Part shown: one piece after another, positions 2,248 through 28,944 of the stretch
Layout: the number at the start of each line of letters is the position of its first letter
How positions within the stretch are numbered: position 1 is the first letter of the stretch
IMG/VR virus record: IMGVR_UViG_2667527522_000007
Length of the DNA: 28,944 nucleotides
Source of the DNA: a virus
Lineage: Duplodnaviria; Heunggongvirae; Uroviricota; Caudoviricetes
Direction: 5' to 3' (one strand)
Made by a program: the position numbers and the translations under genes
Notes under the pieces: generated by a model
Told to the model about the DNA's origin: nothing
What the model saw: only the letters and a program-made list of their open reading frames with translations
The model's database searches: none

Positions 2248-2726
2248 TATCCCGCCCCCGTCATACCCGTGAATCTGGTCGCCATACTGCCAGCTTTACC
2301 GATGAGCGATTCCGCCTGTTTACCGATATCGCCATAAAGCGCGGCCAGTGATTCATCAACGCGGGTGAGCGACAGCGTAAAATCAATTTTTCTGGGTGTG
2401 CCGTCTGCAAAGAAAATACTCCCTGTTTCACTCACCCTGCTGATGACATACATGCCGTAAATCATGCCGGTGCCATCCAGCAACGGCCACGCCCGGCCTT
2501 CCTCTGCCATCAGCCTGAGCGTGGTCATCGTCAGCTTCCCGCCGGTCAGTTCGGGATAAAGCACGCCGGCAAGCGTCATGTTTTCCTCACCCACACCGAG
2601 AAACTGGTAGGCATCCCGTTTACCGATACGGGAATTTGACGGCCAGCGATAATCTGATTCACGCTGCATGGTCTGGTGTGGCAGCGTCTGGCGCATAAAA
2701 ACAAACATACCTAACGCGAGCATCAT
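2247..2726 (-). CDS. U: Tail protein U
   Basis: 159 aa, position between T and D, start/stop overlap with D. Confidence 0.8.
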   Translation of the reverse strand: MMLALGMFVFMRQTLPHQTMQRESDYRWPSNSRIGKRDAYQFLGVGEENMTLAGVLYPELTGGKLTMTTLRLMAEEGRAWPLLDGTGMIYGMYVISRVSETGSIFFADGTPRKIDFTLSLTRVDESLAALYGDIGKQAESLIGKAGSMATRFTGMTGAG

Positions 2727-2740
2727 TTTTCGTCACCTCC

Positions 2741-5608: not shown

Positions 5609-5663
5609 GGTTTTCTCACTTCTGAATCGGGGTTACCGGTCAGCCTGGCTGACCGGATGAAAA

Positions 5664-6182
5664 TCACAGGCCGATATTGCGGCGGTGTTGCTCCAGCCGG
5701 TCGACGCCGTTCACCTTCTCAATCATGTTGATGGTGTCAATTTCGACCAGCTCCTTACCGTCCATCGTCAGCAGGAAATAGGTGCAGACCACGGAGATTT
5801 TCGACTCGGTGTCTTCTCCCTGTTTACCCTCGCCGGTGTCGATTTCTTTCTGACGTCCACGCATGACCACCTCGACGGCCACCGTTTCGCCGGTATCGTC
5901 GCGCTGGTAAGAGCCTGCAAAACGAATCGGTACGGCATCCACACCGGTTGCGGCGTAAAGCTCCCAGATAACCGAATCCGGGAAGCCACCGAGCGACCAC
6001 TCCATTGACAGCGCATCGTCATCAAGGCCGAGGTCTACCGGTGCGCTGCCGTTCATCCCCGCACCGCGATAGTTTTCGAGCTTACGGGTCAGTTTTGGTA
6101 GCGTGACGGACTTCGCGACGCCCTGATAGCTGTAGCCGTTCAGAAAGACGTTCATTAACTTGAGTTTGCGCGGCATTGCCAT
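5664..6182 (-). CDS. FII: Tail tube protein FII
   Basis: 172 aa, between sheath and E. Confidence 0.85.
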   Translation of the reverse strand: MAMPRKLKLMNVFLNGYSYQGVAKSVTLPKLTRKLENYRGAGMNGSAPVDLGLDDDALSMEWSLGGFPDSVIWELYAATGVDAVPIRFAGSYQRDDTGETVAVEVVMRGRQKEIDTGEGKQGEDTESKISVVCTYFLLTMDGKELVEIDTINMIEKVNGVDRLEQHRRNIGL

Positions 6183-6194
6183 CGGTCAGGCTCC

Positions 6195-7385
6195 TTAATT
6201 GCTGTTAACCGAGGTGACCAGATTCGCCAGGTATTTATCGGTAATACGCTGGCGCAGGGTCAGGTTTTCGAGAGGAGGCACCGGTGTATAGTCGTAGTCG
6301 ATATACAGTTTTCCGGCCTTGAGGGTTTCCGCATCGTTGGATTCTTCGCTGAACCAGCATGAGCCATCCACGATATAGCCGTTTGTTTTCAGCTCACGGA
6401 ATTTGGCATTGATGCCGTCAACGATGTCGCGAATCAGCGTTGCGGTGATGGGCTTGTCCACCGCCCACATGTGCGCCTCAGCTATCGTGTCGGCCAGCAC
6501 CTGCGCGGTACGGGTGTAGTTTTCAAAGAGAAACAGTGGGTCATCAGAGCAGGTACGGTTACCCCAGAAGCGGAAACCGTCGCGGCGAATCAGCGTAGTG
6601 ACGCCTGACTCGTTAAGCAGGTCAGCATCGGTGCCGGACTCCTGCAAATCCCAGAATACAGATGCGCTGATGCCGGTAACACCGTTCACCCCGACGTTGG
6701 ACAGCGTTTTATGCCAGCCCTGCTCCTGGTCGATTTTAGCGCGCAGCCCCAGCGCACGAGCGGTGGCATACGCGGTGGCGGTGGTACTGGTGACCGTATC
6801 CCATGCGAGGAAATCCGGCCAGATGACCATCAGCTCACGCTGGCTGAAATTCTGGCGGTAGGCTTTCACCTCGGAAATGGTCTTACAGCCCCATGCGCTG
6901 ATATACCCGAAAGCGCGCAGCTTCTGACAGACGGATGCTAGTGCTACAGCCACCTCTTTGGTATCCAGTCCCGGCACACCAAGAATACGCGGTTTAACAC
7001 CGGTTACCGACTCTGCCGCCAGCAGGGCTTTCAGTCCGGTGTACTGACCGTTTTCGTCAGTGGTGCCGATGATATTGGAAACGGTCTGCGCAAGTTTCGT
7101 TTCTTCGTCGTCGCCGGTGCCGTCCTCCACGCGCACAACAACGGTGACCGGTTTTGACTGGTCGGCGATAGCCTGCAACGATGCCGCCAGCGTGCCTTTT
7201 TTACCGGCCTTTGCAATTGCGCTCTGCACATTGGTAATCAGCACCGGTTTATTGAGGGGGAAGGTTTCCGCATCCGCATCGCTGGCCGTGCAGACCATGC
7301 CAACAATGGCAGTGGATACGGTGGAAATGACACGGGTGCCGTCGTTAATCTCCAGCACCTGCACGCCGTGATGATAGTCACTCAT
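6195..7385 (-). CDS. FI: Contractile tail sheath protein FI
   Basis: 396 aa, first gene of the FI-FII-E-T-U-D operon. Confidence 0.9.
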   Translation of the reverse strand: MSDYHHGVQVLEINDGTRVISTVSTAIVGMVCTASDADAETFPLNKPVLITNVQSAIAKAGKKGTLAASLQAIADQSKPVTVVVRVEDGTGDDEETKLAQTVSNIIGTTDENGQYTGLKALLAAESVTGVKPRILGVPGLDTKEVAVALASVCQKLRAFGYISAWGCKTISEVKAYRQNFSQRELMVIWPDFLAWDTVTSTTATAYATARALGLRAKIDQEQGWHKTLSNVGVNGVTGISASVFWDLQESGTDADLLNESGVTTLIRRDGFRFWGNRTCSDDPLFLFENYTRTAQVLADTIAEAHMWAVDKPITATLIRDIVDGINAKFRELKTNGYIVDGSCWFSEESNDAETLKAGKLYIDYDYTPVPPLENLTLRQRITDKYLANLVTSVNSN

Positions 7386-7444
7386 CCGTTTAACTCCGTG
7401 GTTAATGGGTGAGTGATATTTTCAGTTGTGCCGGAGATGTCAGG

Positions 7445-7627
7445 CTATTTGTCCCGGTTGGCTAAGGGATGACACAATTTATTCTTTGTCGCTGATGAGG
7501 GGAATTTTTTATAGAGCGTGGACAGGCCAATATCAAAAATCAGCTCACATCCTGCGCACTCCAGCGCGTTACGCTGCAATTCCGTATTCTGGTCATTTGT
7601 TGACACGCGGACATAGCCAATAAGCAT
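7445..7627 (-). pseudogene. Serine DNA invertase (Gin/Pin/Hin family) remnant with a large in-frame internal deletion
   Basis: 60-aa ORF: MLIGYVRVSTNDQNTELQRNALECAGCELIF (invertase N-terminus with catalytic-serine motif) fused directly to DIGLSTLYKKFP (invertase C-terminal tail); about 130 central codons missing. Confidence 0.75.
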
Positions 7628-7654
7628 GATGGATCCCCTGAATAAAAACCGGGG

Positions 7655-8029
7655 ATGATGCCAGTTAGCCGTAATCTCTGCATTTTCTTAAACGTTGGTT
7701 TGGGAGAAGCGGCAAAACGGAATGTGGGAACAGGGGAAAATCAGATACCTGATATGTCATCATATGCATCAGGTTCAGGCTGGCGAAAAATGCCAGATGG
7801 TTCAATTGAACAGTGGGGACGAATTAGTTTTCCTGGTGAACACGGGCCTGTATCCGCCAATGTTTCATTCCCGATTCCATTTACACAGACACCGGGCATT
7901 GTAATTGTGTGCGATGGTGGTTTCGGGGGCGGGAATATGTGGGGGGCGACCAACTGGAGCACTACCGGCTTCATAGCTCACTGCAATTATGGTCTTGAAG
8001 GTGGTGCGTTTTTCGCTAAGGGCTGGTAA
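7655..8029 (+). CDS. Alternative tail-fibre C-terminal segment (Sv'-like), silent in this orientation
   Basis: Plus-strand ORF entering at site A with ...[11 protein letters not shown]...; Gly-rich tip; stop overlaps the next ATG (TAATGATG). Confidence 0.6.
7683..7708. repeat. Invertase crossover site A (gix/hix-like 26-bp site)
   Basis: TTTTCTTAAACGTTGGTTTGGGAGAA; 14 bp (7695-7708) is the exact reverse complement of 9508-9521. Confidence 0.6.
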
Positions 8030-8472
8030 TGATGAAATATCTGTACGTAAACAACCTGGCATATCCTTACGAACTTCAGTCTCTTTATGTTGAAAAAGGT
8101 GAATGGCCTGAAGAAAAAGGTGTTGATATAGACGAAGTAATTTTCAGGGAATATTTCTATGACACACCACCAGAAGGAAAATACAGATGTGTTGGAGAAG
8201 ATGGACTGCCTGCATGGGCAGATATTCCTCCACCAACACGTGAAGAACAAATTGCATCAGCCGAAACTAAAAAGCAGCAATTGATTAATCAGGCCAACGA
8301 TTATATGAACAGTAGACAATGGGTTGGTAAAGCGGCTATTGGTCGTCTGAAAGGTGAGGAACTGGCGCAATATAATTTGTGGCTGGATTATCTGGACGCA
8401 CTGGAGCTGGTCGATACTTCCAGTGCACCAGATATTGAATGGCCTACTCCTCCGGCAGTTCAGGCCAGATGA
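8029..8472 (+). CDS. Alternative tail fibre assembly chaperone (Tfa')
   Basis: 147 aa; C-terminal motif LDYLDALELVDTSSAPDIEWPTPP parallels the C-terminus of the convergent Tfa. Confidence 0.75.
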   Translation: MMKYLYVNNLAYPYELQSLYVEKGEWPEEKGVDIDEVIFREYFYDTPPEGKYRCVGEDGLPAWADIPPPTREEQIASAETKKQQLINQANDYMNSRQWVGKAAIGRLKGEELAQYNLWLDYLDALELVDTSSAPDIEWPTPPAVQAR

Positions 8473-9055
8473 CATCCGGCGCGGTGCTGGTATCTGTTGC
8501 CGTCACCGCGTCAATGTAATCCAGCACCGTGTTAAGTCGGCTGGTTTCTGCCTGCGTCAGATTCCGTCCGGCCCGTAATTTCAGTTGAATCAGACTGATG
8601 GAAGCCATTGCAGTATCAATCAGCGACTGGCGTTGTGCTTCTGCTGCATCTACTGCGGCGCTATGCTGTGCATCGGTATCCGTCACCCATTTCTCACCAT
8701 CCCATTTATCGTATGGTGTTAACGGGGCGATAGTGGTTGTATTATCAGGGTAATCACCCGGAGCTGTGATTTCTTTTGATTCTCCTGTTTCGGTGCTAAA
8801 GACGATTTCACCGCGATGGTCTGGCACATATTCCCATGAGTTAAAATCTGCAGAACGGCAGATTGCATAACCAGCCTTATGTGTAACTGGTGCATCTAAA
8901 CAAGAACATGCCGGGATACCGACGCCAACCGTAAGATATTCAGTTGATGTGGAAATATATTCCCGCGTTTCTCCGTTGTAGTTGTAAACGGTAATGAAGC
9001 CAGCCTCTGTGGCAAATCCGTTTTCATCCAAAGTGATTTTTTTTGTGGTCATCAT
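8444..9055 (-). CDS. G: Tail fibre assembly chaperone (G/Tfa family), expressed orientation
   Basis: 203 aa immediately downstream of H, start overlaps H stop; C-terminal motif VLDYIDAVTATDTSTAPDVIWPELP. Confidence 0.8.
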   Translation of the reverse strand: MMTTKKITLDENGFATEAGFITVYNYNGETREYISTSTEYLTVGVGIPACSCLDAPVTHKAGYAICRSADFNSWEYVPDHRGEIVFSTETGESKEITAPGDYPDNTTTIAPLTPYDKWDGEKWVTDTDAQHSAAVDAAEAQRQSLIDTAMASISLIQLKLRAGRNLTQAETSRLNTVLDYIDAVTATDTSTAPDVIWPELPEE

Positions 9056-10347
9056 GCTGCCCTTACAATGTAGTTAAATGCAATGTTACGTGGCCTTGTT
9101 TCTGCTGATGTTCTTGCACTCCTGGATAAATCAAGTGTCACACCATAGTAACTAAATGCATTACCAGTTGATGGAGCGGCATATTTAACCCCAGAACTAG
9201 AACCAACATTAAAAACTCCAGATGCTGAGGAAGCTGACCCCATAGTGTTATCAATCAGAGAACCCGTAACATTTTGCATAGCGTCAAGTTGTTCGCTTAA
9301 TAAAGCGCGTCCACTATCAACATCACGCCCGTCATCCCAGCCACGAATAAATTCACCTCGTAAATCAGGCAATTTATTTGTCGGATAAGCCTTTGCCAGT
9401 TCCGGGTATTCTTCAGCAGAAAAAAACGCACCGTTGCATTTCAGCCAGCCTGTTGGCGGAGTGGTGGAAGGCCACGGAACAGGCACGCCAACGGGTAATG
9501 CCGAACCTTCTCCCAAACCAAGGTATGCGAGAAGACCAGCTACATCCTTTCCACTCAAATGAGTCAGCGTCTCATCCAGTGGCTGCTTACCTGACAGCGC
9601 ATTGTTAATGGTGGTACTGAATTTCGGGTCATTGTTAATGGCTGCGGCAATTTCTTTCAGTGTGTCCAGCGTGGCTGGCGCACCGTTAATCAGAGCGGTA
9701 ATAGCGGCCTGAACAAACGCAGTGGTCGCAATCCGCGTGGTGTTATTTCCTGCGGCAGGCGTCGGCGCTTTTGGTTCTCCGGTAAATGTCGGATTATGTT
9801 TCTGCGCATACTGGGTATGAGGATCCTGTGCGGCAATGTGGTTTCTCATCTGGTCATCCACATACAGCCTTAATTCCAGGACTTCATCATCCACGTATTT
9901 ACGGGTCGCCAGTACCACCGACGGGTCGATTTTCAGCGTGATAGCTTCGGTATTCGTGACAACCAGAATCATGCGGATAGTCTGGGTACGACCACTGCCT
10001 TCCTGCAACTGCGGTTTGTACGTTTCCGGGCAGTTCGCCACCGCAATGAGTACGCCTTCATCATCATAAAGCCCAATCTCACGGATCCAGAATCCGCCCT
10101 CGTTCTCAGGGATGATTTGCTCCGCAATAATCTGGCTCTGGTTGTTCGGGTCAACACTCAGAAGATTCAGCGGCGCGATGCGTTTCTGGTTAATCAGTTT
10201 TGTCTGTGCCGGGTCTGGTGTCGGCAAGACACCATTCGCATCACCAACGGCCATTTGCGTCAGATTCAGCTTACTGCCGAGCATCGTCGCGTTAGCCAGC
10301 CGTGCTGCGCCCTGATTAGTCAGAATGGCGTAGTATTTCACTGTCAT
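9052..10347 (-). CDS. H: Tail fibre protein H (constant N-terminal part plus variable C-terminal part inside the invertible segment)
   Basis: 431 aa; Mu S / P2 H-like N-terminus; crossover site within codons LAYLGLGEGS; C-terminal region resembles a phage tail-collar domain. Confidence 0.85.
   Translation of the reverse strand: MTVKYYAILTNQGAARLANATMLGSKLNLTQMAVGDANGVLPTPDPAQTKLINQKRIAPLNLLSVDPNNQSQIIAEQIIPENEGGFWIREIGLYDDEGVLIAVANCPETYKPQLQEGSGRTQTIRMILVVTNTEAITLKIDPSVVLATRKYVDDEVLELRLYVDDQMRNHIAAQDPHTQYAQKHNPTFTGEPKAPTPAAGNNTTRIATTAFVQAAITALINGAPATLDTLKEIAAAINNDPKFSTTINNALSGKQPLDETLTHLSGKDVAGLLAYLGLGEGSALPVGVPVPWPSTTPPTGWLKCNGAFFSAEEYPELAKAYPTNKLPDLRGEFIRGWDDGRDVDSGRALLSEQLDAMQNVTGSLIDNTMGSASSASGVFNVGSSSGVKYAAPSTGNAFSYYGVTLDLSRSARTSAETRPRNIAFNYIVRAA
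9508..9533. repeat. Invertase crossover site B (gix/hix-like), inside H
   Basis: TTCTCCCAAACCAAGGTATGCGAGAA; imperfect palindrome with AAACC-AA-GG core like gix/hix. Confidence 0.6.
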
Positions 10348-10955
10348 GCGTTTACTCTCAGGTTATCAATTAAATGAATGGCCGAGGCCGGGAAATAATC
10401 CCCTCCGACAATAATGGCCTCCGGGGTGTAGGGATAAACCGTCAGGGCGTCACCGTGATAGCATCCCGCACCGGCAAAAATGTTGCCGGTTGTACTTAAA
10501 CTGATAGCCAGTCCCGTCAGATGGCGGCTTGCCGGTTTTGCATCAGCAACTAGGCGCTCCAGCTCCTGATACATTTCTTCGGTAATACCCTGCTCAAGCA
10601 CGCCAACAACGATACGGAACGTCCCCGGCTCCTCGTTGAGCTGCCACCACTCCCTCACCTCAATCAGATAGCCGAGCGGCTCCACCACACGCCGGATTGC
10701 GCCTATAGTGCCCTTATGGCAGTGAATGAAATACGCATCGCGGATAACAGCGCGTTTTGTCGCTTCCGGCCATTTATCATCCCAGCGGTCAACCGAAAAT
10801 GACCACGCCAGCCACGGCAGCAGATTTGCCGGGCAGGTGTCCGGGTTCCACAGCTCACGAATACTGACCGGCGTTTTTTCAATTTCCGCACAGGCTTTTG
10901 CGGCGGCAACTTCAAGCAGTGATGAGCCGGTCGGCAGCAGTCGCGAATCACTCAT
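10344..10955 (-). CDS. I: Baseplate assembly protein I
   Basis: 203 aa; N-terminus MSDSRLLPTGSS...; position between J and H. Confidence 0.85.
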   Translation of the reverse strand: MSDSRLLPTGSSLLEVAAAKACAEIEKTPVSIRELWNPDTCPANLLPWLAWSFSVDRWDDKWPEATKRAVIRDAYFIHCHKGTIGAIRRVVEPLGYLIEVREWWQLNEEPGTFRIVVGVLEQGITEEMYQELERLVADAKPASRHLTGLAISLSTTGNIFAGAGCYHGDALTVYPYTPEAIIVGGDYFPASAIHLIDNLRVNA

Positions 10956-12208: not shown

Positions 12209-12840
12209 AAAGGACTCCCGGTTGTGCCGCCGCTGTCGCCGGGGTGTTTGTGGGTATGCAGTACCTTACCGTTTGATGAGAGTTCACCGCCGGTGTGTTC
12301 AATGTTGCCGCGCATCGTCCCGCCCTTCTGCACTTCCAGCGTGCCGGTAGTCAGTTTGTTAGTGCAGACCACTTCCGGTGTGTCCAGAGTGACACGGGTT
12401 GACGATTTCACCGTGACCACCGGTACCGTGGCAGTAACAGAATCAGAAGCCGTCACGCTGGCCGTTTTAATTCCGCTTACCGTGAGTGCACTGGTTTCGG
12501 GTTCATATTCAATCACCGCCCCGTCAGGGAAACGGATATGCAGGGCATCCGCCGACGCAGACGGCGCGGGGTTATCGCCGGAATAAATCCCCGGCAGAAC
12601 GAACGCCGTGTCGAGTTCACCGCCCACGGCCAGAATCAGCACCTGTTCCCCCACGGAAGGTGCCCACCATGTGCGCGAACGTCCGGCGCGATGGGTCAGC
12701 CACTGAAGCCAGTCGGTGCACATGCCGCCGGTCTGCACACGGCAGCGACCGGCGTTAAGGTCGGTTTCGACGATAATGCCGGTGCGGATCATGTTGCGCA
12801 GTGCGCGCGCGAGTTCCTGAATATTTGCGAGAGTGTTCAT
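12205..12840 (-). CDS. V: Baseplate spike/hub protein V
   Basis: 211 aa; first gene of the V-W-J-I-H-G operon. Confidence 0.85.
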   Translation of the reverse strand: MNTLANIQELARALRNMIRTGIIVETDLNAGRCRVQTGGMCTDWLQWLTHRAGRSRTWWAPSVGEQVLILAVGGELDTAFVLPGIYSGDNPAPSASADALHIRFPDGAVIEYEPETSALTVSGIKTASVTASDSVTATVPVVTVKSSTRVTLDTPEVVCTNKLTTGTLEVQKGGTMRGNIEHTGGELSSNGKVLHTHKHPGDSGGTTGSPL

Positions 12841-12906
12841 AACGGGAAGGATGCCGCCGGGTCATACCGGCGGCAATGTGACGATGAGGTGTCTGGAATG
12901 GCACAA

Positions 12907-16373: not shown

Positions 16374-17117
16374 TTAACTGGCTTTCTTTTTCGGGCGTCC
16401 ACGTTTTGCCGGTGTCACGCTCCGGGTCTTACGCGGGGTACGGGTGGCCGCTTTGGGCTGCGGCTCCGGCTTCGGTTTCAGCTCCCGCTCCAGTCGTTCA
16501 ATCTCTTTTTTGACGCCTGCCTGACAGTCGAGCTGTGTCGCACGTTGCAGGTGAGCCAGCGCACCGGCGGCATCACCACCGTCACGCAGAAACAGACCGG
16601 TGATTTTGTGCAGCTTTGCGCGCACTTCATCAGGCATGTCAGCCGTGGCGGTCAGTTCAAGGGTCTCCGTCAGCAGGCGGGTATCCACAGACTCACCGGC
16701 AGCGTGAGCACGCATGGCCGCAAGCGCCACCTCCTCGGTGAACATGTACGGCGGGGTGCGGCGGTGTTTACCCGGCATGGTCAGACCGTACTTCAGGGCA
16801 TAACGGGCAATCTCCAGCGCACCGGCAATATCGCCGGTATCCAGACGCCACAGCATGACCGTCATCAGAATGTCATCCTGTGCACCTTTGCCCTGCTCCA
16901 GCACGCCGTTCACCCACGGCAACCAGAACGGCAGCAGTTCGCGTTTTTTCGCGGCCTTAAGCTCTTTTGAATAAATCGCTTTCAGTGTGCGCTGGTCTGC
17001 GGCGAGCTTAACCAGCATCTGCTCATAGACAGTTGCATGTCGCAGCGGGGCGGCTTCCCGCTGCGCGGTCATCGCTGCCGAGACCCGCATCATGTGGCGC
17101 TGTGCGGGACTCGTCAT
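16374..17117 (-). CDS. M: Terminase small subunit M
   Basis: 247 aa, basic Lys/Arg-rich C-terminus; position N-M-L. Confidence 0.85.
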   Translation of the reverse strand: MTSPAQRHMMRVSAAMTAQREAAPLRHATVYEQMLVKLAADQRTLKAIYSKELKAAKKRELLPFWLPWVNGVLEQGKGAQDDILMTVMLWRLDTGDIAGALEIARYALKYGLTMPGKHRRTPPYMFTEEVALAAMRAHAAGESVDTRLLTETLELTATADMPDEVRAKLHKITGLFLRDGGDAAGALAHLQRATQLDCQAGVKKEIERLERELKPKPEPQPKAATRTPRKTRSVTPAKRGRPKKKAS

Positions 17118-19280: not shown

Positions 19281-21053
19281 ATGACCATCACCACAGACAC
19301 CACTCTTTTACACGACCCGCGTCGTCAGGCGGCGCTGCTGTACTGGCAGGGGTTTTCCGTGCCGCAGATTGCCGCCATGTTGCAGATGAAACGCCCGACG
19401 GTGCAGAGCTGGAAACAGCGCGACGGCTGGGACAGCGTTGCCCCCATCAGCCGTGTCGAAATGAGTCTGGAAGCGCGGCTGACCCAGCTCATCATCAAAC
19501 CGCAGAAAACCGGCGGTGACTTCAAGGAAATTGACCTGCTGGGACGCCAGATTGAACGGCTGGCGCGGGTCAACCGCTACAGTCAGACCGGCAACGAGGC
19601 AGACCTTAATCCGAACGTCGCTAACCGCAACAAAGGCGGGCGTCGCAAACCGAAAAAGAATTTTTTCAGTGACGAGGCCATCGAAAAGCTGGAGCAGATT
19701 TTCTTTGAGCAGTCTTTCGACTATCAGTTGCACTGGTATCGCGCCGGGCTTGAGCACCGCATCCGCGATATCCTGAAATCCCGCCAGATTGGCGCGACGT
19801 TTTATTTTTCCCGCGAGGCGCTGCTGCGCGCCCTGAAAACCGGTCATAACCAGATTTTTCTGTCGGCCAGTAAAACGCAGGCGTATGTGTTCCGCGAATA
19901 CATCATCGCCTTTGCCCGGCTGGTTGACGTTGACCTGACCGGTGACCCGATTGTCCTGGGCAATAACGGCGCAAAACTGATTTTTCTCGGCACCAACTCC
20001 AACACCGCGCAGAGCCATAACGGCGACCTGTACGTCGATGAGATTTTCTGGATCCCGAATTTTCAGGTACTGCGTAAGGTGGCATCAGGTATGGCCTCAC
20101 AGAGTCACCTGCGCTCGACCTATTTCTCCACCCCGTCCACGCTGGCGCACGACGCCTATCCGTTCTGGTCGGGTGAACTGTTCAACCGGGGACGCGCCAG
20201 CGCCGCCGAACGCGTGGAAATCGACGTCAGTCATAACGCCCTTGCCGGTGGGCTTCTCTGTGCGGACGGCCAGTGGCGGCAGATTGTCACCATTGAGGAC
20301 GCCCTGAAAGGTGGCTGCACGCTGTTCGACATTGAGCAGCTTAAACGCGAAAACAGCGCCGACGATTTTAAAAACCTGTTCATGTGTGAATTTGTTGACG
20401 ACAAGGCGTCGGTGTTCCCGTTCGAGGAGCTGCAACGCTGCATGGTCGACACGCTGGAAGAATGGGAAGACTATGCGCCGTTTGCCGCGAATCCGTTCGG
20501 CTCCCGCCCGGTATGGATTGGTTACGACCCGTCACACCGTGGCGACAGCGCCGGATGCGTGGTGCTGGCACCGCCGGTGGTGGCCGGTGGCAAATTCAGA
20601 ATACTTGAGCGTCACCAGTGGAAAGGCATGGACTTTGCCACTCAGGCGGAATCCATCCGCAAACTCACCGAAAAATACAACGTCGAATACATCGGTATTG
20701 ATGCCACCGGCCTCGGTGTCGGCGTGTTCCAGCTCGTGCGCTCGTTCTATCCCGCCGCGCGCGATATCCGCTACACGCCGGAAATGAAAACCGCAATGGT
20801 GCTCAAGGCAAAAGACGTTATCCGCCGTGGCTGTCTGGAATATGACGTCAGCGCCACCGACATCACCAGCTCGTTTATGGCTATCCGCAAGACCATGACC
20901 AGCAGCGGACGCAGCGCCACCTATGAGGCCAGCCGCAGCGAGGAAGCCAGCCACGCCGACCTCGCCTGGGCAACCATGCACGCCCTGTTAAATGAGCCAC
21001 TCACCGCCGGTATCAGCACTCCGCTGACATCCACCATTCTGGAGTTTTACTGA
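19281..21053 (+). CDS. P: Terminase large subunit (ATPase) P
   Basis: 590 aa from MTITTDTTLL; same length as P2 gpP. Confidence 0.85.
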   Translation: MTITTDTTLLHDPRRQAALLYWQGFSVPQIAAMLQMKRPTVQSWKQRDGWDSVAPISRVEMSLEARLTQLIIKPQKTGGDFKEIDLLGRQIERLARVNRYSQTGNEADLNPNVANRNKGGRRKPKKNFFSDEAIEKLEQIFFEQSFDYQLHWYRAGLEHRIRDILKSRQIGATFYFSREALLRALKTGHNQIFLSASKTQAYVFREYIIAFARLVDVDLTGDPIVLGNNGAKLIFLGTNSNTAQSHNGDLYVDEIFWIPNFQVLRKVASGMASQSHLRSTYFSTPSTLAHDAYPFWSGELFNRGRASAAERVEIDVSHNALAGGLLCADGQWRQIVTIEDALKGGCTLFDIEQLKRENSADDFKNLFMCEFVDDKASVFPFEELQRCMVDTLEEWEDYAPFAANPFGSRPVWIGYDPSHRGDSAGCVVLAPPVVAGGKFRILERHQWKGMDFATQAESIRKLTEKYNVEYIGIDATGLGVGVFQLVRSFYPAARDIRYTPEMKTAMVLKAKDVIRRGCLEYDVSATDITSSFMAIRKTMTSSGRSATYEASRSEEASHADLAWATMHALLNEPLTAGISTPLTSTILEFY

Positions 21054-22087
21054 TGAGCAAGAAAAAAGGGAAAACACCGCGACCTGCGGCAAAAACAATC
21101 ACCGCCAGCGCCCCGAAAATGGAAGCATTCACCTTTGGCGAGCCGGTGCCGGTACTCGACCGCCGTGACATTCTGGATTACGTCGAGTGCATCAGTAACG
21201 GCAGATGGTATGAGCCGCCGGTCAGCTTTACCGGTCTGGCAAAAAGCCTGCGTGCTGCCGTGCATCACAGCTCACCGATTTACGTCAAACGTAATATTCT
21301 GGCTTCAACGTTTATCCCGCACCCGTGGCTTTCCCAGCAGGATTTCAGCCGTTTTGTGCTGGATTTTCTGGTGTTCGGTAATGCGTTTCTGGAAAAGCGT
21401 TACAGCACCACCGGTAAGGTCATCAGACTGGAAACCTCACCGGCAAAATATACCCGCCGTGGCGTGGAGGAGGATGTTTACTGGTGGGTGCCGTCCTTCA
21501 ACGAGCCGACAGCCTTCACACCCGGCTCCGTGTTTCACCTGCTGGAGCCGGATATTAATCAGGAGTTGTACGGCCTGCCGGAATATCTCAGCGCCCTTAA
21601 TTCTGCCTGGCTGAATGAGTCGGCCACGCTGTTCCGCCGAAAGTATTACGAAAACGGCGCACATGCCGGATACATCATGTACGTTACCGATGCCGTGCAG
21701 GATCGCAACGATATCGAAATGCTTCGCGAAAACATGGTGAAGTCGAAAGGCCGCAACAACTTTAAAAACCTGTTTCTCTATGCCCCGCAGGGGAAAGCCG
21801 ACGGCATTAAAATTATCCCGCTCAGTGAAGTGGCGACGAAGGACGATTTTTTTAATATCAAAAAAGCCAGCGCCGCTGACCTGCTGGACGCACACCGCAT
21901 CCCCTTTCAGTTGATGGGTGGCAAGCCGGAGAACGTCGGGTCACTGGGCGATATTGAGAAAGTGGCAAAGGTCTTTGTCCGCAATGAGCTAATCCCGTTA
22001 CAGGACAGGATTCGGGAAATAAACGGCTGGCTCGGTCAGGAGGTCATCCGCTTTAAAAACTACTCACTGGACACTGACAACGGCTGA
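21053..22087 (+). CDS. Q: Portal protein Q
   Basis: 344 aa, same length as P2 gpQ; start overlaps P stop; adjacent to cos. Confidence 0.85.
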   Translation: MSKKKGKTPRPAAKTITASAPKMEAFTFGEPVPVLDRRDILDYVECISNGRWYEPPVSFTGLAKSLRAAVHHSSPIYVKRNILASTFIPHPWLSQQDFSRFVLDFLVFGNAFLEKRYSTTGKVIRLETSPAKYTRRGVEEDVYWWVPSFNEPTAFTPGSVFHLLEPDINQELYGLPEYLSALNSAWLNESATLFRRKYYENGAHAGYIMYVTDAVQDRNDIEMLRENMVKSKGRNNFKNLFLYAPQGKADGIKIIPLSEVATKDDFFNIKKASAADLLDAHRIPFQLMGGKPENVGSLGDIEKVAKVFVRNELIPLQDRIREINGWLGQEVIRFKNYSLDTDNG

Positions 22088-22092
22088 ACATC

Positions 22093-22114
22093 GCCGCCTG
22101 CGGGCGGCTTTTTT
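22093..22114 (+). terminator. Rho-independent terminator after Q
   Basis: gccgcc-tgcg-ggcggc followed by tttttt. Confidence 0.6.
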
Positions 22115-22256
22115 ACACCCCGCCATCACGCCCTCACACGCTCACCACCGCACAAAACAGCCCGCAGACACACCAACGCCCCGGCGAACAATCTAAACGC
22201 CATCACGACGCGCTCAGACGCTGAAAAAATAAAATCAGCACCACCGCCAGCGCGCA

Positions 22257-22275
22257 GTGCTTTCCCCGCCTCGCC
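22257..22275. other. cos cohesive-end site (19 nt)
   Basis: gtgctttccccgcctcgcc is the reverse complement of GGCGAGGCGGGGAAAGCAC, the P2 cohesive end as I remember it; lies just after Q as in P2. Confidence 0.6.
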
Positions 22276-22560
22276 CGCCCGCTTCACGGGGCGGTTTTAA
22301 TGCAGTTGCATAGATACTATGGATCCGCACCAGTCCTGACCGCACGCCGCCTGAACGGACATCCCCAACGCATGCAAAAACATTCACTTGTTGCATGCAT
22401 AGCTTTTTAAGTACGCCATACCGCAACTGTACATTTTTAAGCAATTGGCAACTTTAAAAAATTTACATTGCTTTCAAGACCTTATCATCCGTAGTCTCTG
22501 TTTTTTACTTTGAGCTACATCAATAAAATCTCAAACATGTTTAATGCAAAGCCCTTGTTA

Positions 22561-22615
22561 CACAACATAGAATGTATGCCTAGAAACAACGACATACTAT
22601 ATGTTGTGTTTTTCC
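22561..22615 (+). other. Long imperfect hairpin with U-tract (candidate sRNA 3' end or attenuator) in the accessory cassette
   Basis: cacaacata...tatgttgtg 9-bp outer stem with an inner gtatg/catac stem, followed by ttttt; possible promoter TTTACA-15-TATCAT about 80 bp upstream (22462-22488). Confidence 0.3.
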
Positions 22616-22675
22616 GGCTCTCTGTTCGGTGATATGCCAAATCACTTTGCGTTTAAACAGAGCATTATTTCAGGG

Positions 22676-22690
22676 CAAGACTTCGCTCAA
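22676..22690 (+). repeat. 15-bp direct repeat, copy 1 (caagacttcgctcaa)
   Basis: Exact 15-mer repeated at 22940-22954. Confidence 0.5.
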
Positions 22691-22753
22691 AAGTCATTCC
22701 ACCTAAGAAGCGCATATACCGGTGGAAGTTGCCCTCTACTTACAGGAGGCAAT

Positions 22754-22867
22754 ATGAAGAAATGCTATTACTGCATTCTCGTTCTGGCCCTCTTTGGCTA
22801 TCCAAACGGTAGTCCGAGTGGTTTGTCAGTAAACGTCAGTAATATCAATGTCAGCATTATGCTTTAA
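22754..22867 (+). CDS. Small 37-aa hydrophobic peptide, function unknown (candidate moron or small toxin-like peptide)
   Basis: AGGAGG 4 nt upstream of ATG; MKKCYYCILVLALFGYPNGSPSGLSVNVSNINVSIML; terminator immediately downstream; the 88-aa track ORF 22601..22867 has no RBS. Confidence 0.3.
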   Translation: MKKCYYCILVLALFGYPNGSPSGLSVNVSNINVSIML

Positions 22868-22880
22868 TATGCTTCAAACA

Positions 22881-22910
22881 AAAAAACCACCTGCCAGGGT
22901 GGTTTTTTTG
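22881..22910. terminator. Bidirectional rho-independent terminator (A-tract, hairpin, T-tract)
   Basis: aaaaaaccacc-tgccag-ggtggttttttt; could terminate both the small-ORF transcript and the convergent early operon ending with A. Confidence 0.6.
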
Positions 22911-22939
22911 CGCCCATCATCAATACGATGAAAGACTGA

Positions 22940-22954
22940 CAAGACTTCGCTCAA
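22940..22954 (+). repeat. 15-bp direct repeat, copy 2 (caagacttcgctcaa)
   Basis: Exact copy of 22676-22690; the pair brackets the small ORF and terminator. Confidence 0.5.
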
Positions 22955-23169
22955 GACGAATTATGCGTCGACATAAGGTTACCCGCAATGATTTTATTAG
23001 ACTAAATGGATGGCCTTTTATGACCCGGATCAAACGGCTGTCCTTACCGACATGCTAGTCACTCAATAGCATTTAGCCTTCTAATTCAGCATGCTATTGA
23101 CCTTCTGCTGCCCCATAACTGCTCCGCATAAGCCATTCAATGCCATATCAAATCACGTTGTGTTTTTAC

Positions 23170-25446
23170 TCAAATGGGTAACGAGAACCCCGGCCACTCA
23201 TCAGCAACCGGATACGTGAATTTTTTCCCGTCATAATTTACGGTCGCGCCACGCGCCAGCGCCTCAAGCTCCCATCGTTGCGGCCTGATACCGTTCTGAG
23301 CGAGGTCAACGCGGATACGGGTAATTTGCATTCTTTCCGACCGGGTCAGTCTGGCCGATGGTGCAATTTCATGTGGTTTTAACGGGCTTCCGTTTCTTTG
23401 CTGACGATTTGGTGTTCTCAGTCCGTGTTTTAATGCGCCCCTGAGCGCCATCACGACCTCCGGGTCACTCCATTCGATAACACCGTCATCTACCAGATTA
23501 AGCACTGCTGCGGCGTGCTCAGAAGGTGTGGGAGCCGGTAACGAAGTATCACCACCGGTGAGCTTTCCACAGTTATTGACAGGACTCCGAGGCGCGGCGA
23601 TGCCGCTTTTTAAAGTCAAAGGCTCAACGACCGGAACTTTCGGCACAATGCGCCAGTCCGTCGTTCTGGTGATATGAATATGACGCGCGCCGAGATGCGG
23701 CGCGTAAATGCCGACCACTCTCTCGACTTCTTCCTCGTATTCGTTAACGTCATCCGACGGGCTACGGGCGACCCTGACAGTCTGACAATCGCGCGGGACA
23801 TTTGCCCCGCCCTGCGCGCTGATATACAGCGCAAAATCGCCACTGTCTGCGGCGGCGCGTGCAGCCTCCACGCGTTCGTCAAATTCATCAGCAATGCTGA
23901 CGCCGCGAGGCAATTTACGTAGCTCACGGTAAGCTCCCATTGTCGGCAGGCCAACCGTTTTAAATTGCGGGATGCGCCACGTTGATGCCCATGCGGTAAC
24001 AGCCGCCGCAGTATCTTTCAGCGGCCTACCGGTATCATTATCGAGCTGACCATCCAGTGCATAGCCGTCGATGTTTTTTGAGATGTATTTCGCGATATAT
24101 CCCGCAGCACCGCCCCGGTTAAGGTGTTTTGCCTGAAAACGGTTTCGCGCGGCTCCTCTTTCGTCGCCATCCTCTTTGAGCGCATAGCGACGCATGATTT
24201 CAATAATCTGGTTACGCTGGCGTGGATTACAAAAAAGCATCATATGCCAGTGCGGCGTTCCGTCGTGGTGTGGCTCGACGACACGCAAACCGTAGACCTG
24301 TAAGTCATTATCCTTGAATGCCGTGCGCATCAGGCTCCAGATACGGCAGAGATATCGCTGCGCATCCTTTGGATTAAATGCCTCATCATTCCAGCCGTGA
24401 TTAAGCTGGACGGTTTTACTTTCGCCTTTTCCGACCTGACGTGCCGGGTGATACTTTGACGGCGCGGTCAGCGTGATAAACATCCCCACATCACCCTCTG
24501 CGGCGGCGTAACGCTCAATACCGGCAATGGTGTTCATCAGCTCCATCCGGCGAATTTCAGGATTAGAAATACTGCCCATCACCTTACTGATAAGGTCGAT
24601 GCGCTCGCCGGTTTCCCTGTTTTCAAGGTCACACGATTTAAGAAATTCCAGATTTGCCTGGCGGCGCGCACGCACATCACGAATGGCATGTTTACTGGCA
24701 TAAGGAGAACGGTCTTTATTGACCTCCCCGACAGCTATCAGTAACGCTTCATGCCAGCGCATACGCTGGCCTTTAAGCTGATGAGTCCACCACTCATCGT
24801 TAAACAGACGGGCAATGGCAGAATATGCCTGCCTCGTGGTCATCTGTCCTTTACGGTATTTTTTCCAGTAGAGAGGGGAAATATTGAAAGCACGTGCAGC
24901 GCCAGCAACATGACCATAGAGGTGAGCCTGCGCCTCATCCGTAAACAGCGATTCTTTCTCGCCATGCGCATCCACCCAGGCATCGCTGAGTTCCTCATAC
25001 ATCATGAAAAGCTGCGATGAGATACGGGCGGCAAACTTTTTCAGCTCCTTGTCATTCATTCCCGGCAGGCGCGCATAGTGGTCACGCTCTGCCAGAAACA
25101 GCATCGACGCGTCGGTGTTCATTTCATGGCGCTGATTCACACGCTCAATGCGCGGCCATAAACGACGCTGAAAAGTGGATGTGAGGAAATAAAACCCGTG
25201 CACCGGGCTTTTATTGCGCCGGATGTAGTCATAGCGTGAAGTAAACAGCGAGCGCAAAAAGTAAGGCAGGCGGTTAATCGTGGATAAAACACCTTGCACC
25301 TGACGCATCTCGTCACGTGTAAGAGGTCTTTCGCGCCCGACAGCCTCGCGTGGCGCGTTCCATGCATAAGCACCGGTAAACGCCTTACCGGTGCCTGCGG
25401 CAAATGCTGACGGAGGGACAAAACGCCCGGAGGCTTTAACGGCCAT
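23170..25446 (-). CDS. A: Replication initiation protein A (rolling-circle nickase family); start chosen at MAVKASGRF
   Basis: About 758 aa; P2 gpA-like by length and position at the end of the early operon. Confidence 0.85.
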   Translation of the reverse strand: MAVKASGRFVPPSAFAAGTGKAFTGAYAWNAPREAVGRERPLTRDEMRQVQGVLSTINRLPYFLRSLFTSRYDYIRRNKSPVHGFYFLTSTFQRRLWPRIERVNQRHEMNTDASMLFLAERDHYARLPGMNDKELKKFAARISSQLFMMYEELSDAWVDAHGEKESLFTDEAQAHLYGHVAGAARAFNISPLYWKKYRKGQMTTRQAYSAIARLFNDEWWTHQLKGQRMRWHEALLIAVGEVNKDRSPYASKHAIRDVRARRQANLEFLKSCDLENRETGERIDLISKVMGSISNPEIRRMELMNTIAGIERYAAAEGDVGMFITLTAPSKYHPARQVGKGESKTVQLNHGWNDEAFNPKDAQRYLCRIWSLMRTAFKDNDLQVYGLRVVEPHHDGTPHWHMMLFCNPRQRNQIIEIMRRYALKEDGDERGAARNRFQAKHLNRGGAAGYIAKYISKNIDGYALDGQLDNDTGRPLKDTAAAVTAWASTWRIPQFKTVGLPTMGAYRELRKLPRGVSIADEFDERVEAARAAADSGDFALYISAQGGANVPRDCQTVRVARSPSDDVNEYEEEVERVVGIYAPHLGARHIHITRTTDWRIVPKVPVVEPLTLKSGIAAPRSPVNNCGKLTGGDTSLPAPTPSEHAAAVLNLVDDGVIEWSDPEVVMALRGALKHGLRTPNRQQRNGSPLKPHEIAPSARLTRSERMQITRIRVDLAQNGIRPQRWELEALARGATVNYDGKKFTYPVADEWPGFSLPI

Positions 25447-25711
25447 ATGAGCCAAAAGCCTCAGAACAACGCTTGCTGAGTTGCTCAACCTGCGCGTTTA
25501 AATCAGCAAAAGACTTTGCGCTTCCGGTCAGAATATCGTGATGCATCAGGCCGGAAACGAGCTGGCTTAATTTCGGGTAATAACCAACCACCGCCAGCCA
25601 TTCCTGACCGGCGTTTTTACCGCTTTCCGCTCTCTTTTTCTCGTGGAGAATAAACTGAAAGCTGTCACTGGTAACGACATAACGTTCGCCAATTTCGATA
25701 CGAATACTCAT
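25436..25711 (-). CDS. Early-operon hypothetical protein (P2 orf83 position)
   Basis: 91 aa; stop overlaps A start; synteny. Confidence 0.6.
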   Translation of the reverse strand: MSIRIEIGERYVVTSDSFQFILHEKKRAESGKNAGQEWLAVVGYYPKLSQLVSGLMHHDILTGSAKSFADLNAQVEQLSKRCSEAFGSYGR

Positions 25712-25932
25712 GCCATTCTCCGGTAATGCTTGTTTTTTGCTTCAAAGACTGACTGGCAGGAAACACAACGCGTGGCTGACGGATAAGCTGCACGACGGGC
25801 AGCAGGTATTGGCGCGTCACACTCTTCGCAAACCAGCGCAGAAACACCGCAATGTTTTACCCTTGCCGCGTTAATCTGGCGCTCCAGTAATTCAGCCTGT
25901 TGTTCCTGAATAAAATCTATGTTGTCCGGCAT
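25708..25932 (-). CDS. TraR/DksA-family C4 zinc-finger protein (P2 orf82 position)
   Basis: 74 aa with C-x2-C...C-x2-C (CEECDAPIP...CVSC). Confidence 0.7.
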   Translation of the reverse strand: MPDNIDFIQEQQAELLERQINAARVKHCGVSALVCEECDAPIPAARRAAYPSATRCVSCQSVFEAKNKHYRRMA

Positions 25933-26237
25933 TACCAGCTCCTTTTGTCGTTCAGCTTCTTAAATTCATCAGCGCAATAGCTGGCGATTTCTGTCGTTAA
26001 TTTTGTCAGTTCATCCACGGATGAAATTTGCTTATGAAATACAGCGCGTTTAACAAGTAAATTGACCACATCAGACAGGAGGTTTAATTCATTCTGATAA
26101 ATCGCGATAACAGATTCAGTTATGTCGCGTTTTTCTTTATCAAGACAAAGTTGAATAAGAGACAAATCGCCATTTTTCATAACGGCGATTTTTAAGGCGT
26201 TATTCAGTAATACAACTGAATGAGAACAGGACATCAA
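25932..26237 (-). CDS. Hypothetical early protein, AT-rich (P2 orf81 position)
   Basis: 101 aa; compositionally AT-rich relative to neighbours. Confidence 0.55.
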
Positions 26238-26458
26238 AGCACCTCCCCGCGAGACAATCCGATATTGTGAAATTTTTCCGACTCCTGACTGAGCAGCTCG
26301 ACTATCTCCACGCGGGATAACTCCGCCTTTGTGATATGGCGAATCATGGCGTCAAGATGAGAAGAAAAGCGCGTCGCAGCGTCGGCCTGTGCTTCGGTTC
26401 TGGCCTGTTGCAGCAGTAATGCGTATTTACCGCACTGATTTTCAGAAACTGTATGCAT
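26234..26458 (-). CDS. Hypothetical early protein (P2 orf80 position)
   Basis: 74 aa; start/stop coupling with neighbours. Confidence 0.55.
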
Positions 26459-26521
26459 GACTTTCTCCAGGCAAAAAGAAGCCCCGCACGATTAAGTGCG
26501 TTAAAAACTCTGGTTAATTAC

Positions 26522-27022
26522 TTAATGCAGATATTGCTCTGGTTTTACCGACGTCAGAATTGTCGGTGCATACTCAAACAGGCTGAATAATTCACGTAAT
26601 GCACGGAATAAAGCATCACGCCAGTAACATGACTCTTCATTAATTCGCCAGTATGGCTGGTTGAATTCTTTTTCAGTCAATCCGGCATGCATAAATAAAG
26701 TACGACGCTGACTGACTGTTAAAAAACTAATATATGCATACTCACTTGCGCCAACCTGACGGCGTTTTGAGAATGCCCCACGCAATTCATCAATTGCACA
26801 AACCAGCCGTTCACGTTCGACGTCGTTCATTTCTTCAAAACGCATCGTTGCGTGACGCTGTTTTAACTGCGCATGAAAGCAAACCGTTAACCGTTCGCGC
26901 TCCATCATCTGATTATAATAATCACATGTATCCTGCCAGCGAGGGACGGCCAGATGCTTACCAATTATCCGGCGCATAGTTGCTGGCTGTTTTTCGACGA
27001 GATTGAGCGTCATCACTGTCAT
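26522..27022 (-). CDS. B: Replication protein B
   Basis: 166 aa, same length as P2 gpB; position between cox/orf78 and orf80. Confidence 0.8.
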   Translation of the reverse strand: MTVMTLNLVEKQPATMRRIIGKHLAVPRWQDTCDYYNQMMERERLTVCFHAQLKQRHATMRFEEMNDVERERLVCAIDELRGAFSKRRQVGASEYAYISFLTVSQRRTLFMHAGLTEKEFNQPYWRINEESCYWRDALFRALRELFSLFEYAPTILTSVKPEQYLH

Positions 27023-27216
27023 TTCCAGAACCTCCGGCTTTTCAGAAAGGTCAGAGCCTTTTTTAACGGACTCTGTTTTTTGGTGCGGATAATGATTCCC
27101 TTGCGACCCTTCCCGTGGGTGATGGTGAAGTCAATCGCCCTGGGGCTTTCGTTACGCAGTAACTGAGCAATACAACGCGGCTCATTCATAATCACAACCC
27201 CATCCACAAAAGCCAT
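27019..27216 (-). CDS. Small hypothetical protein (P2 orf78 position)
   Basis: 65 aa basic ORF coupled to B; overlaps cox 3' end. Confidence 0.4.
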   Translation of the reverse strand: MAFVDGVVIMNEPRCIAQLLRNESPRAIDFTITHGKGRKGIIIRTKKQSPLKKALTFLKSRRFWK

Positions 27217-27479
27217 GCATCACGCTGTTCAACCGGTCGGTTATAAAACGCCTCACGTACAGCGCGATTAAACTCAGGAATGAAAACCCATTTTTCACCG
27301 GCACGAGCCTTCGGTTTGCAAGGATCACGCAATTCAATAATTGGTAATTTATTTGCCTTCACCATTTCACTGACGGCTGTCTTTGGCTTCCCTAATAAAT
27401 CAGCAAATTTATCCACATGAACCGCATCAAGCGGATACTGAATCACATAATTTTCAGCGTCCATATATGGTACCCTCAT
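27192..27479 (-). CDS. cox: Cox excisionase / repressor of Pc (start may be the internal Met at 27464)
   Basis: About 90 aa, first gene of the early operon, divergent from C; C-terminus ...RDAWLLWMGL resembles P2 Cox. Confidence 0.75.
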   Translation of the reverse strand: MRVPYMDAENYVIQYPLDAVHVDKFADLLGKPKTAVSEMVKANKLPIIELRDPCKPKARAGEKWVFIPEFNRAVREAFYNRPVEQRDAWLLWMGL

Positions 27480-27600: not shown

Positions 27601-27894
27601 ATGAAATTAAGCGAAAAGATTAAGGCCTTGCGTGAGGCTGAAGGGCTAAGCCAATCAAAATTCTGTGAAATCATAGAGTTACCGCTAAGCACACTTAAAA
27701 AATATGAAGGAGGAAACTTTGAACCCGGTGGCACAGCTTTGCTAAAAATCACTATGCATCCCACATTCCAAAAATATGCTTTATGGCTTATGACAGATAA
27801 AACCGCGCCGGACGCAGGACAAATCGCACCGGCTCTCGCGCACATTGGGCCAGAGTCAACAGAGTCCAACCACTCCGAGAAAAGGATTGGATAA
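27601..27894 (+). CDS. C: Immunity repressor C (HTH)
   Basis: 97 aa, N-terminal HTH (LSQSKFCEIIELPLSTLKKYEGG); C-terminus ...SGQIAPALAH resembles P2 C. Confidence 0.8.
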   Translation: MKLSEKIKALREAEGLSQSKFCEIIELPLSTLKKYEGGNFEPGGTALLKITMHPTFQKYALWLMTDKTAPDAGQIAPALAHIGPESTESNHSEKRIG

Positions 27895-27963
27895 CTCTAT
27901 ATAAAGATTACATTTTCACCATTTGCTACCAAGATGGTGAATACAGCGCCGGAGGGCTTTCTT

Positions 27964-28944
27964 ATGGCAATTAAGAAGCTCGATGATGGTCGCTATGAAG
28001 TGGACATTAGACCTCGCGGTCGCGACGGAAAACGCATCCGCAGGAAATTCGAAAGAAAAGCTGAAGCACTAGCATTTGAGCGATACACAATCGCCAATGC
28101 CAGTCAGAAAGAATGGGGAGGCCAGCGAGCAGACCGCCGGACTTTGAGTGAGTTGCTGGACATCTGGTGGAAATATCACGGGCAAAACCACGAGCATGGA
28201 ACAAAAGAGTTTAATCATCTACTCAAAACCATCAGCGGCATAGGTGATATACCAGTGAACAGGATGAGCAAAAGGGCTTTGATGGATTATCGTTCCATGC
28301 GACTACGTGATGGTATCAGTGCCGCAACGATAAACCGTGACATGTACCGATTATCCGGCATGTTCACAAAATTAATTCAATTGGATGAATTTTCCGGGCA
28401 ACACCCAATTCACGGACTGCCGCCACTGGCGGAGGCCAACCCTGAAATGACGTTCCTGGAAAAAGCAGAAATCGAAAAACTGTTAAATGTTTTGGCTGGT
28501 GATGACTTACTTGTCGCGCTTTTATGTCTGAGCACTGGAGGAAGATGGACGGAAGTTGCCACGCTAAAACCAGCACAGATTACAAATTGCAGGGTTACCT
28601 TCCTGAAAACCAAAAACGGTAAAAAGCGAACCGTGCCGATTTCTGAGGAACTGGAGAAAAAAGTTAAAGAGGAGGCCAGCGCCAAATTATTCAAAGTTGA
28701 TTATGAGAAATTTTGCGGGATTTTACGCAGAGTGAAACCTGATATACCACCCAATCAGGCAACCCATATCCTGCGGCATACATTCGCAAGCCATTTCATG
28801 ATGAATGGGGGCAATATAATCGCACTGCAACAGATTCTGGGACATGCGAGCATTCAGCAGACGATGGCCTATGCGCACCTTGCGCCTGACTATCTGCAAA
28901 ATGCCGTCGCTCTGAATCCACTAAAAGGCGGAGTGACGTTATAA
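27964..28944 (+). CDS. int: Tyrosine integrase (start chosen at MAIKKLDDGRYEVDIRP; the track ORF starts at 27934)
   Basis: N-terminus matches P2 Int as remembered; catalytic-domain residues present (...HILRHTFASHFMMNGG...MAYAHLAPDY); stop coincides with the window end. Confidence 0.9.
   Translation: MAIKKLDDGRYEVDIRPRGRDGKRIRRKFERKAEALAFERYTIANASQKEWGGQRADRRTLSELLDIWWKYHGQNHEHGTKEFNHLLKTISGIGDIPVNRMSKRALMDYRSMRLRDGISAATINRDMYRLSGMFTKLIQLDEFSGQHPIHGLPPLAEANPEMTFLEKAEIEKLLNVLAGDDLLVALLCLSTGGRWTEVATLKPAQITNCRVTFLKTKNGKKRTVPISEELEKKVKEEASAKLFKVDYEKFCGILRRVKPDIPPNQATHILRHTFASHFMMNGGNIIALQQILGHASIQQTMAYAHLAPDYLQNAVALNPLKGGVTL

Follow-up and report, generated by a model that had tools for sequence, protein, structure and literature searches.

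The window analysed here, a 28,944-nt stretch of Caudoviricetes DNA (IMG/VR record IMGVR_UViG_2667527522_000007), consists of a P2 backbone that runs in the orientation opposite to that of the P2 reference. By blastn, P2 was matched in the following blocks:

749-7465, 97% identity to P2
10519-12840, 95% identity to P2
12905-22275, 97.5% identity to P2
22257-22304, 100% identity to P2 (the right end of P2)
23183-27190, 97% identity to P2

There was no P2 match at positions 1-748, in the tail-fibre/fun(Z) region (7465-10519), in the orf30 slot (12840-12905), in the slot that holds old, tin and orf91 in P2 (22305-23182) or in the cox-C-int module. Downstream of the portal gene Q, shortly after its terminator, comes a cos site, with the replication gene A on the other side; the cognate gpM/gpP terminase is encoded in the same element. 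The features that define this locus are as follows:

16374..17117, - strand: M, terminase small subunit (99.2% identical to P2 gpM over 247 aa; Pfam Phage_term_smal, E=3e-48)
19281..21053, + strand: P, terminase large (ATPase) subunit (100% identical to P2 gpP over 590 aa; PHROG terminase large subunit)
21053..22087, + strand: Q, portal protein (98.8% identical to P2 Q over 343 aa; phrog_68 portal, E=7e-176)
22093..22108, + strand: Rho-independent terminator after Q (terminator scan; homologous to tQ of P2, annotated at 160-181)
22250..22304, unstranded: 55-bp cos core, common to P2 and P4 (from the Q side: 7 bp, the 19-mer and then 29 bp toward the right end)
22257..22275, - strand: cos cleavage segment, whose 19 nt are predicted to form the 5' single-stranded cohesive ends (matches cosL/cosR of NC_001895 and the published sequence exactly)
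23170..25446, - strand: A, rolling-circle replication initiator (98% identical to P2 A over 755/761 aa)

The start of A lies 895 bp from cos, on the side opposite Q; A is annotated as a replication endonuclease in E. coli prophages nearly identical to the window (hereafter twins), and it forms the far boundary of the cos-proximal variable region.

The segment at 22257-22275 reads GTGCTTTCCCCGCCTCGCC on the + strand, and its reverse complement on the - strand is GGCGAGGCGGGGAAAGCAC, which occurs a single time in the window. The original prediction had named this 19-mer as the P2 cohesive end, and the identification was borne out: GGCGAGGCGGGGAAAGCAC is identical to the annotated cosL (1-19) and cosR (33575-33593) of the P2 reference NC_001895, so that comparison with the published P2 cos gave an identical 19-mer, and the same sequence is annotated as cosL in the record of phage fiAA91-ss. 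The literature likewise prints GGCGAGGCGGGGAAAGCAC for P2-related phages, as their 19-nt 5'-extruding cohesive end (PMC3931495, citing Padmanabhan, Wu & Calendar 1974). The coordinates, the strand and the position after Q were also all as claimed, with 169 nt between the Q stop and the start of cos in the window vs. 167 nt in P2. From the cos annotation of phage 186, in which the top strand is cut at the 5' end and the bottom strand at the 3' end, we infer that the nicks would fall between 22256 and 22257 on the + strand and between 22275 and 22276 on the - strand. A 69-aa open reading frame on the - strand (22235-22444) runs straight over cos and was treated as spurious.

We considered whether the 19-mer might be part of a P4-like satellite or a chance match. 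P4 does carry the identical 19-mer, and many of the IMG/VR 19-mer matches, among the matches listed, are satellite-sized contigs of ~11 kb. In this window, however, the neighbours of cos are P2 Q and P2 A, all within one continuous P2 backbone, and none of the P4 genes looked for (alpha primase, sid, delta and psu) adjoins cos. The satellite reading is refuted by these flanking genes, and dinucleotide-preserving shuffles put the number of matches expected by chance at 0.01 even when up to three mismatches are allowed; we regard either version of this explanation as having next to no chance of being correct.

The 19-mer sits within a longer conserved block. In an alignment with the joined ends of P2, P4 and 186, positions 22250-22304 were identical to P2 at 55/55 positions and to P4 at 52/55. 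The block conserved between P2 and P4 runs TGCATTAAAACCGCCCCG..AAGCGGGCG, then the 19-mer, then.GCGCGC, for 55 bp in total, and its 29-bp right-end part holds CCGCCC-GCTTCAC-GGGGCGG, an imperfect palindrome, as well as the first ATGCA (22300). Blastn homology to P2 ends exactly at 22304 on the right-end side. On the Q side divergence starts 7 nt from the nick both in the P2-like prophage of E. coli W and in one IMG/VR contig, L077, which has the same cos and 99.3% identity over 815 nt before this point of divergence. Both core edges coincide with recombination breakpoints. Three papers, among them PMC3931495 and PMC9594776, credit a "55-bp core" of P2 and P4 to Ziermann & Calendar 1990, and 22250-22304 agrees with the core as credited there.

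To take stock of the gene content, we compared all 42 P2 proteins with the window by tblastn. Every essential P2 gene gave a single full-length alignment, at 92-100% protein identity if the replaced tail-fibre parts are set aside; the set comprises Q, P, O, N, M, L, X, Y, K, R, S, V, W, J, I, H, an equivalent of G, FI, FII, E/E', T, U, D, ogr, B, A, C, cox and int, and gpN is 98.9% identical to that of P2. The original description of a full gene set apart from old and tin therefore held for the packaging, head, lysis, tail and replication essentials, all of which are full length, but orf30, fun(Z) and orf91 are missing as well, and an unrelated cassette for a tail-fibre tip and its assembly stands in place of G and the distal part of H. 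All of the missing genes are marked as non-essential in the P2 record NC_001895. The orf30 slot, which holds a 786-bp non-essential gene in P2, is empty here (12841-12904), leaving 64 bp between the S and V homologues. The immunity and integration set that had been listed with the others is present, but it is not that of P2:

27192..28944, unstranded: heteroimmune switch and integration module (identity to P2 proteins and Pfam)
27192-27479, - strand: cox (43% identical to P2 Cox; Pfam Phage_Cox)
27601-27894, + strand: C repressor (43% identical to P2 C; Pfam HTH_3; phrog_147)
27934-28944, + strand: int (52% identical to P2 Int; Pfam Int_N and Phage_integrase)

With identities to P2 of no more than 43-52% in int, C and cox, the element is heteroimmune, and its attachment site differs from that of P2. 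Complete E. coli genomes carry near-identical prophages in the interval from fieF to cpxP; identity to the window is 99.5-100% at the left end and 99.9% at the int end. One of these, in E. coli 22AR0750 (99.5% identical), has 47-nt exact direct repeats located 80 nt and 116 nt beyond the positions of the window ends. Both att sites thus lie outside the window, and completeness is for that reason not demonstrable from the window alone. Both ends of the window fall precisely on stop codons, as though a prophage caller had trimmed it to gene boundaries. From the 22AR0750 repeats, the circle formed by this element was estimated at ~29.2 kb. The first 25 kb of the window are 96-97% identical, over 81-94% of their length, to many isolated, plaque-forming Peduovirus phages, and several of these isolated relatives have genomes of 28.9-29.5 kb (28.9-29.2 kb for STYP1 and pro483), so a ~29.2 kb circle can be packaged. 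The closest twin is that of E. coli 1332KP (NZ_CM173849, locus L003), with 100% identity over 1-1100; in this strain a second, different P2-like prophage follows directly after int (27149-41213 of that locus), so that two prophages lie side by side at fieF-cpxP.

The replaced tail-fibre parts are intact open reading frames, with Phage_tail_fib, Collar and Caudo_TAP domains in the new H tip and assembly gene. The fun(Z) slot (7386-9533) is occupied by an invertible tail-fibre segment of the Mu Gin / P1 Cin type, which is made up of the following:

~7500-7630, - strand: invertase N-terminal stub (an intact 197-aa recombinase in the 22AR0750 twin)
7655-8029: alternative fibre tip (Gp53-like_C)
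7683-7709 and 9507-9533: 27-nt inverted crossover sites
8029-8472: alternative assembly gene (Caudo_TAP)

The alternative tip and assembly gene face the active ones, at 9052-10347 and 8444-9055. With the invertase gene reduced to a stub, the fibre genes are probably locked in their present orientation, barring the action of a host invertase in trans.

At the other margin of the backbone there is an open reading frame absent from P2:

1-642, - strand: 213-aa open reading frame, between ogr and host fieF in the E. coli twins, where it is annotated as hypothetical

This protein had zero Pfam or PHROG matches, and it matched the PADLOC profile PD-T4-10_B (E=1.3e-34, profile positions 139-346 of 353). 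The system to which PD-T4-10_B contributes the toxin is a toxin-antitoxin pair of two genes that acts by abortive infection (PMC9519451); the 143 bp upstream of the 213-aa frame leave no room for an A-type antitoxin partner. It may be a solitary, defence-like cargo gene adjoining attR.

Is the cos site, then, a relic that is never cut, carried by a defective (cryptic) prophage incapable of excision, replication or assembly? The att sites are absent from the window, the invertase stub documents at least one deletion, and a frameshifted orf81 homologue in one E. coli twin indicates that decay does occur in the lineage. Against this, the essential P2 genes are full length at 92-100% identity, the replaced tail-fibre parts are intact and have the expected domains, neither the invertase nor any of the missing genes is essential in P2, and the 47-nt att repeats are intact in twins. 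We consider a cryptic prophage unlikely on this balance. The site is very probably the cos of an apparently intact, heteroimmune P2-like prophage of the genus Peduovirus, as judged from gene content and sequence identity; point mutations that inactivate a protein at full length may be present.

The original prediction had also called the element plausibly inducible by mitomycin C or UV, and this part of it was not supported. An inducible, complete prophage would behave like 186 and the P2-like prophage of E. coli HS, and there is some precedent among close relatives: P88, pro147 and pro483 (the last 96.5% identical over 85% of the window's first 25 kb) were recovered from mitomycin-treated cultures, although these came without an untreated control, so that induction and spontaneous release are not separated. 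In this family, however, SOS induction runs via the LexA-controlled antirepressor Tum acting on a 186-type CI, as annotated in the 186 record, and in SOS-inducible P2-like phages induction depends on the LexA-controlled tum (PMC11195241). By tblastn, no homologue of 186 CI was found in the window, and the best match to 186 Tum (E=0.018 over 25 aa at 5191-5265) runs antisense to gene T and spans the T start. Nor did the window contain a credible LexA box, with zero occurrences of CTGT-N8-ACAG and with the best LexA-like 20-mers reaching only 10/20, inside coding sequence. The C repressor is a P2-type protein of 97 aa with an HTH domain only (Pfam), in which a peptidase domain was not detected. 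P2 itself is classically non-inducible. We therefore judge SOS inducibility of this element to be very unlikely; phage release would probably take place only by spontaneous derepression or with outside help, not through the SOS response. An element that lacks the SOS-induction module would likely give a false negative if its viability were judged by a mitomycin C or UV test.

If the prophage is intact, its packaging can be laid out along P2 lines. Int and Cox would excise the element at the att sites just outside the window, giving the ~29.2 kb circle, on which protein A would start rolling-circle replication. The P2-type terminase (gpM and the gpP ATPase) would recognise the 55-bp core at 22250-22304 and nick the + strand at 22256/22257 and the - strand at 22275/22276, and the resulting linear DNA with 19-nt 5' cohesive ends would be threaded via the gpQ portal into gpN capsids. 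Both the cleavage at these positions and the excision of this particular element are thus predicted from its sequence. Since P2 packages its DNA from monomeric circles, a single cos in each molecule is sufficient. Given that the terminase and the cos core are identical or nearly identical to those of P2 (gpM, 99.2%), the prophage should also package P4-like satellites and P2 cosmids, and by doing so it could mobilise their cargo. The cos assignment is right and it is already known biology. The element belongs to an ordinary P2-like prophage type that is common in E. coli. The cos finding itself matters little, being the packaging site of a common prophage type with near-identical copies in RefSeq.

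The stretch from cos to A is known as a hotspot of defence cargo (PMC9122126; PMC9519451). Here it spans 895 bp without a large gene and is AT-rich, at 33-46% G+C compared to 51-62% in the surrounding sequence, and PGAP called no gene in the cos-to-A segment of the E. coli twins. The interval is divided as follows:

22305..22371, unstranded: spacer of variable sequence and near-constant length, leading from the core to the distal repeats (flank comparisons)
22372..22399, + strand: distal phased pentamer array, a candidate accessory terminase-binding element (sequence conservation), with ATGCA at 22372 (+ strand, +97 from the nick), ATTCA, a variant of ATGCA, at 22382 (+ strand, +107) and ATGCA at 22395 (+ strand, +120)
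22400..23169, unstranded: AT-rich remainder of the slot (old, tin and orf91 in P2), with the same segment carried by E. coli W
22754-22867, + strand: 37-aa open reading frame, MKKCYYCILVLALFGYPNGSPSGLSVNVSNINVSIML, with an AGGAGG ribosome-binding site
22879-22910: perfect 13-bp-stem bidirectional terminator, after the 37-aa frame

Copies with 86-88% identity keep the 37-aa frame open and of unchanged length; in these, synonymous and non-synonymous codon changes stand at 5:2, 4:3 and 4:3. Divergence of the frame's region in these copies is about half that of the distal flanks, and a 48-nt segment holding the terminator (22868-22915) shows 0-1 differences. Relatives in the databases are near-identical only, and a PHROG search gave zero family matches. 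The frame probably encodes a real small hydrophobic protein, to judge from this pattern of conservation. A longer, 88-aa frame (22601-22867) was rejected as a conserved gene: it had no Pfam, PHROG or PADLOC match and near-identical relatives only, and the 86-88% identical copies carry an in-frame TAG, with the last 37 codons alone kept open. The module containing the 37-aa frame is flanked by a perfect 15-nt direct repeat, CAAGACTTCGCTCAA, at 22676 and 22940. It is present in 157/5426 complete E. coli genomes, including that of E. coli W. PGAP made 0 calls over the module among the 40 records listed, and the phage record MET_P1_103_31 calls the 37-aa frame as a CDS. Searches with Rfam at gathering thresholds found nothing in the whole window, and those over 22090-23250 at E<=10 returned sub-threshold matches only, centred on the terminator hairpin, with no known RNA family. 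A promoter scan of 21900-23400 gave fewer sites than were seen in shuffles.

In this element the bare hotspot exposes a minimal cos flank, in which the distal ATGCA array is easily seen. The flank at 22305-22400 is unlike that of P2 and resembles the right ends found in P4, 186 and Eganvirus phages. In an alignment of eight phages, which includes P2 with its otherwise unrelated flank, the three ATGCA-type pentamers are the sole invariant columns outside the core. In the 33.6 kb of P2, the sole cluster of three TGCAT within 32 bp lies at 33452-33474, 100-123 bp from the nick; 8/300 shuffled P2 genomes had such a cluster anywhere. We also assembled right-end flanks from IMG/VR, where at least 191 exact occurrences of the 19-mer gave 153 distinct flanks and, from these, 70 representatives with divergent spacers. 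Among the matches listed, ATGCA was distributed over these representatives as follows:

ATGCA at +25: 63/70 representatives
ATGCA at +96 to +98: 59/70 representatives
ATGCA at +106 to +108: 58/70 representatives
ATGCA at +116 to +121: 44/70 representatives

ATGCA had no positional preference in the Q-side flanks of the same set, again among the matches listed. The spacings between the motifs (72, 10 and 10-13 bp) would place them on roughly one helix face. The ATTCA variant at +107 also occurs in the second most common flank family of IMG/VR among the matches listed, to which the E. coli W flank belongs.

The fixed distance of the pentamers across P2- and P4-like elements with unrelated spacers suggests an accessory element. 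We put forward, tentatively and with rather more doubt than confidence, that the P2/P4 cos may be bipartite, with the 55-bp core (including the ATGCA at +25) joined by helically phased ATGCA motifs at about +97, +107 and +117/120. By analogy with lambda cosB, the array could be an accessory packaging element, possibly a loading site for gpM, the small terminase subunit. P2 cosmids with longer cos flanks transduce >1000-fold better, and the responsible element was not defined in that work (PMC9594776). If the proposal is true, the array would explain this difference in transduction, and it would mark the inner boundary of the defence hotspot beside cos. We do not claim the array as new; it may already be in Ziermann & Calendar 1990.

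The closest known systems bring out what is shared and what is particular to this site. The P2-like prophage of E. coli W, which we take to be phage W-phi, has the cos 19-mer and the whole cos-to-A segment in common with the window, with two mismatches in the first 200 nt from cos and 99.6% identity over the 731 nt adjoining A. In that genome (NC_017635), however, cargo consisting of an AAA ATPase and a hypothetical protein lies between Q and cos (locus L011, 68-2336), whereas the window has a short, P2-type Q-cos interval, and the two elements occupy different chromosomal sites. The accessory genes between Q and cos in E. coli W imply that cargo can occupy either side of the cos core. The likeness to P2 (NC_001895) extends over the identical 19-mer and 55-bp core, the position after Q and its terminator, and terminase subunits that are 99-100% identical; P2 also has three phased ATGCA-type pentamers, at ~100-123 bp from the nick. 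Past +29, the right-end side is unrelated, with the old promoter, old, tin and orf91 in P2 and the 895-bp AT-rich segment here.

P4 (NC_001609) has the identical 19-mer, 52/55 positions of the core and a right end that resembles the flank at 22305-22400, with ATGCA at +97, +107 and +120. Unlike the window, where cos lies in a full helper-type genome, P4 is without terminase or capsid genes of its own and uses those of P2. Phage 186 (NC_001317) and its Eganvirus relatives are alike in architecture, with 75-80% identity to the right-end flank over ~125 bp; the 186 cohesive end differs at 2/19 positions (GGCGTGGCGGGGAAAGCAT), and 186, which is SOS-inducible, has tum and a LexA site in its A-cos interval, both of which this element lacks. 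Lambda packages from concatemers and has 12-nt ends, in contrast to the monomeric circles and 19-nt ends of P2. The lambda cos, made up of cosN and cosB, has zero sequence relation to the site described here but is alike in outline, in that staggered nicks produce 5' cohesive ends and repeats on one side may be bound by the small terminase subunit.
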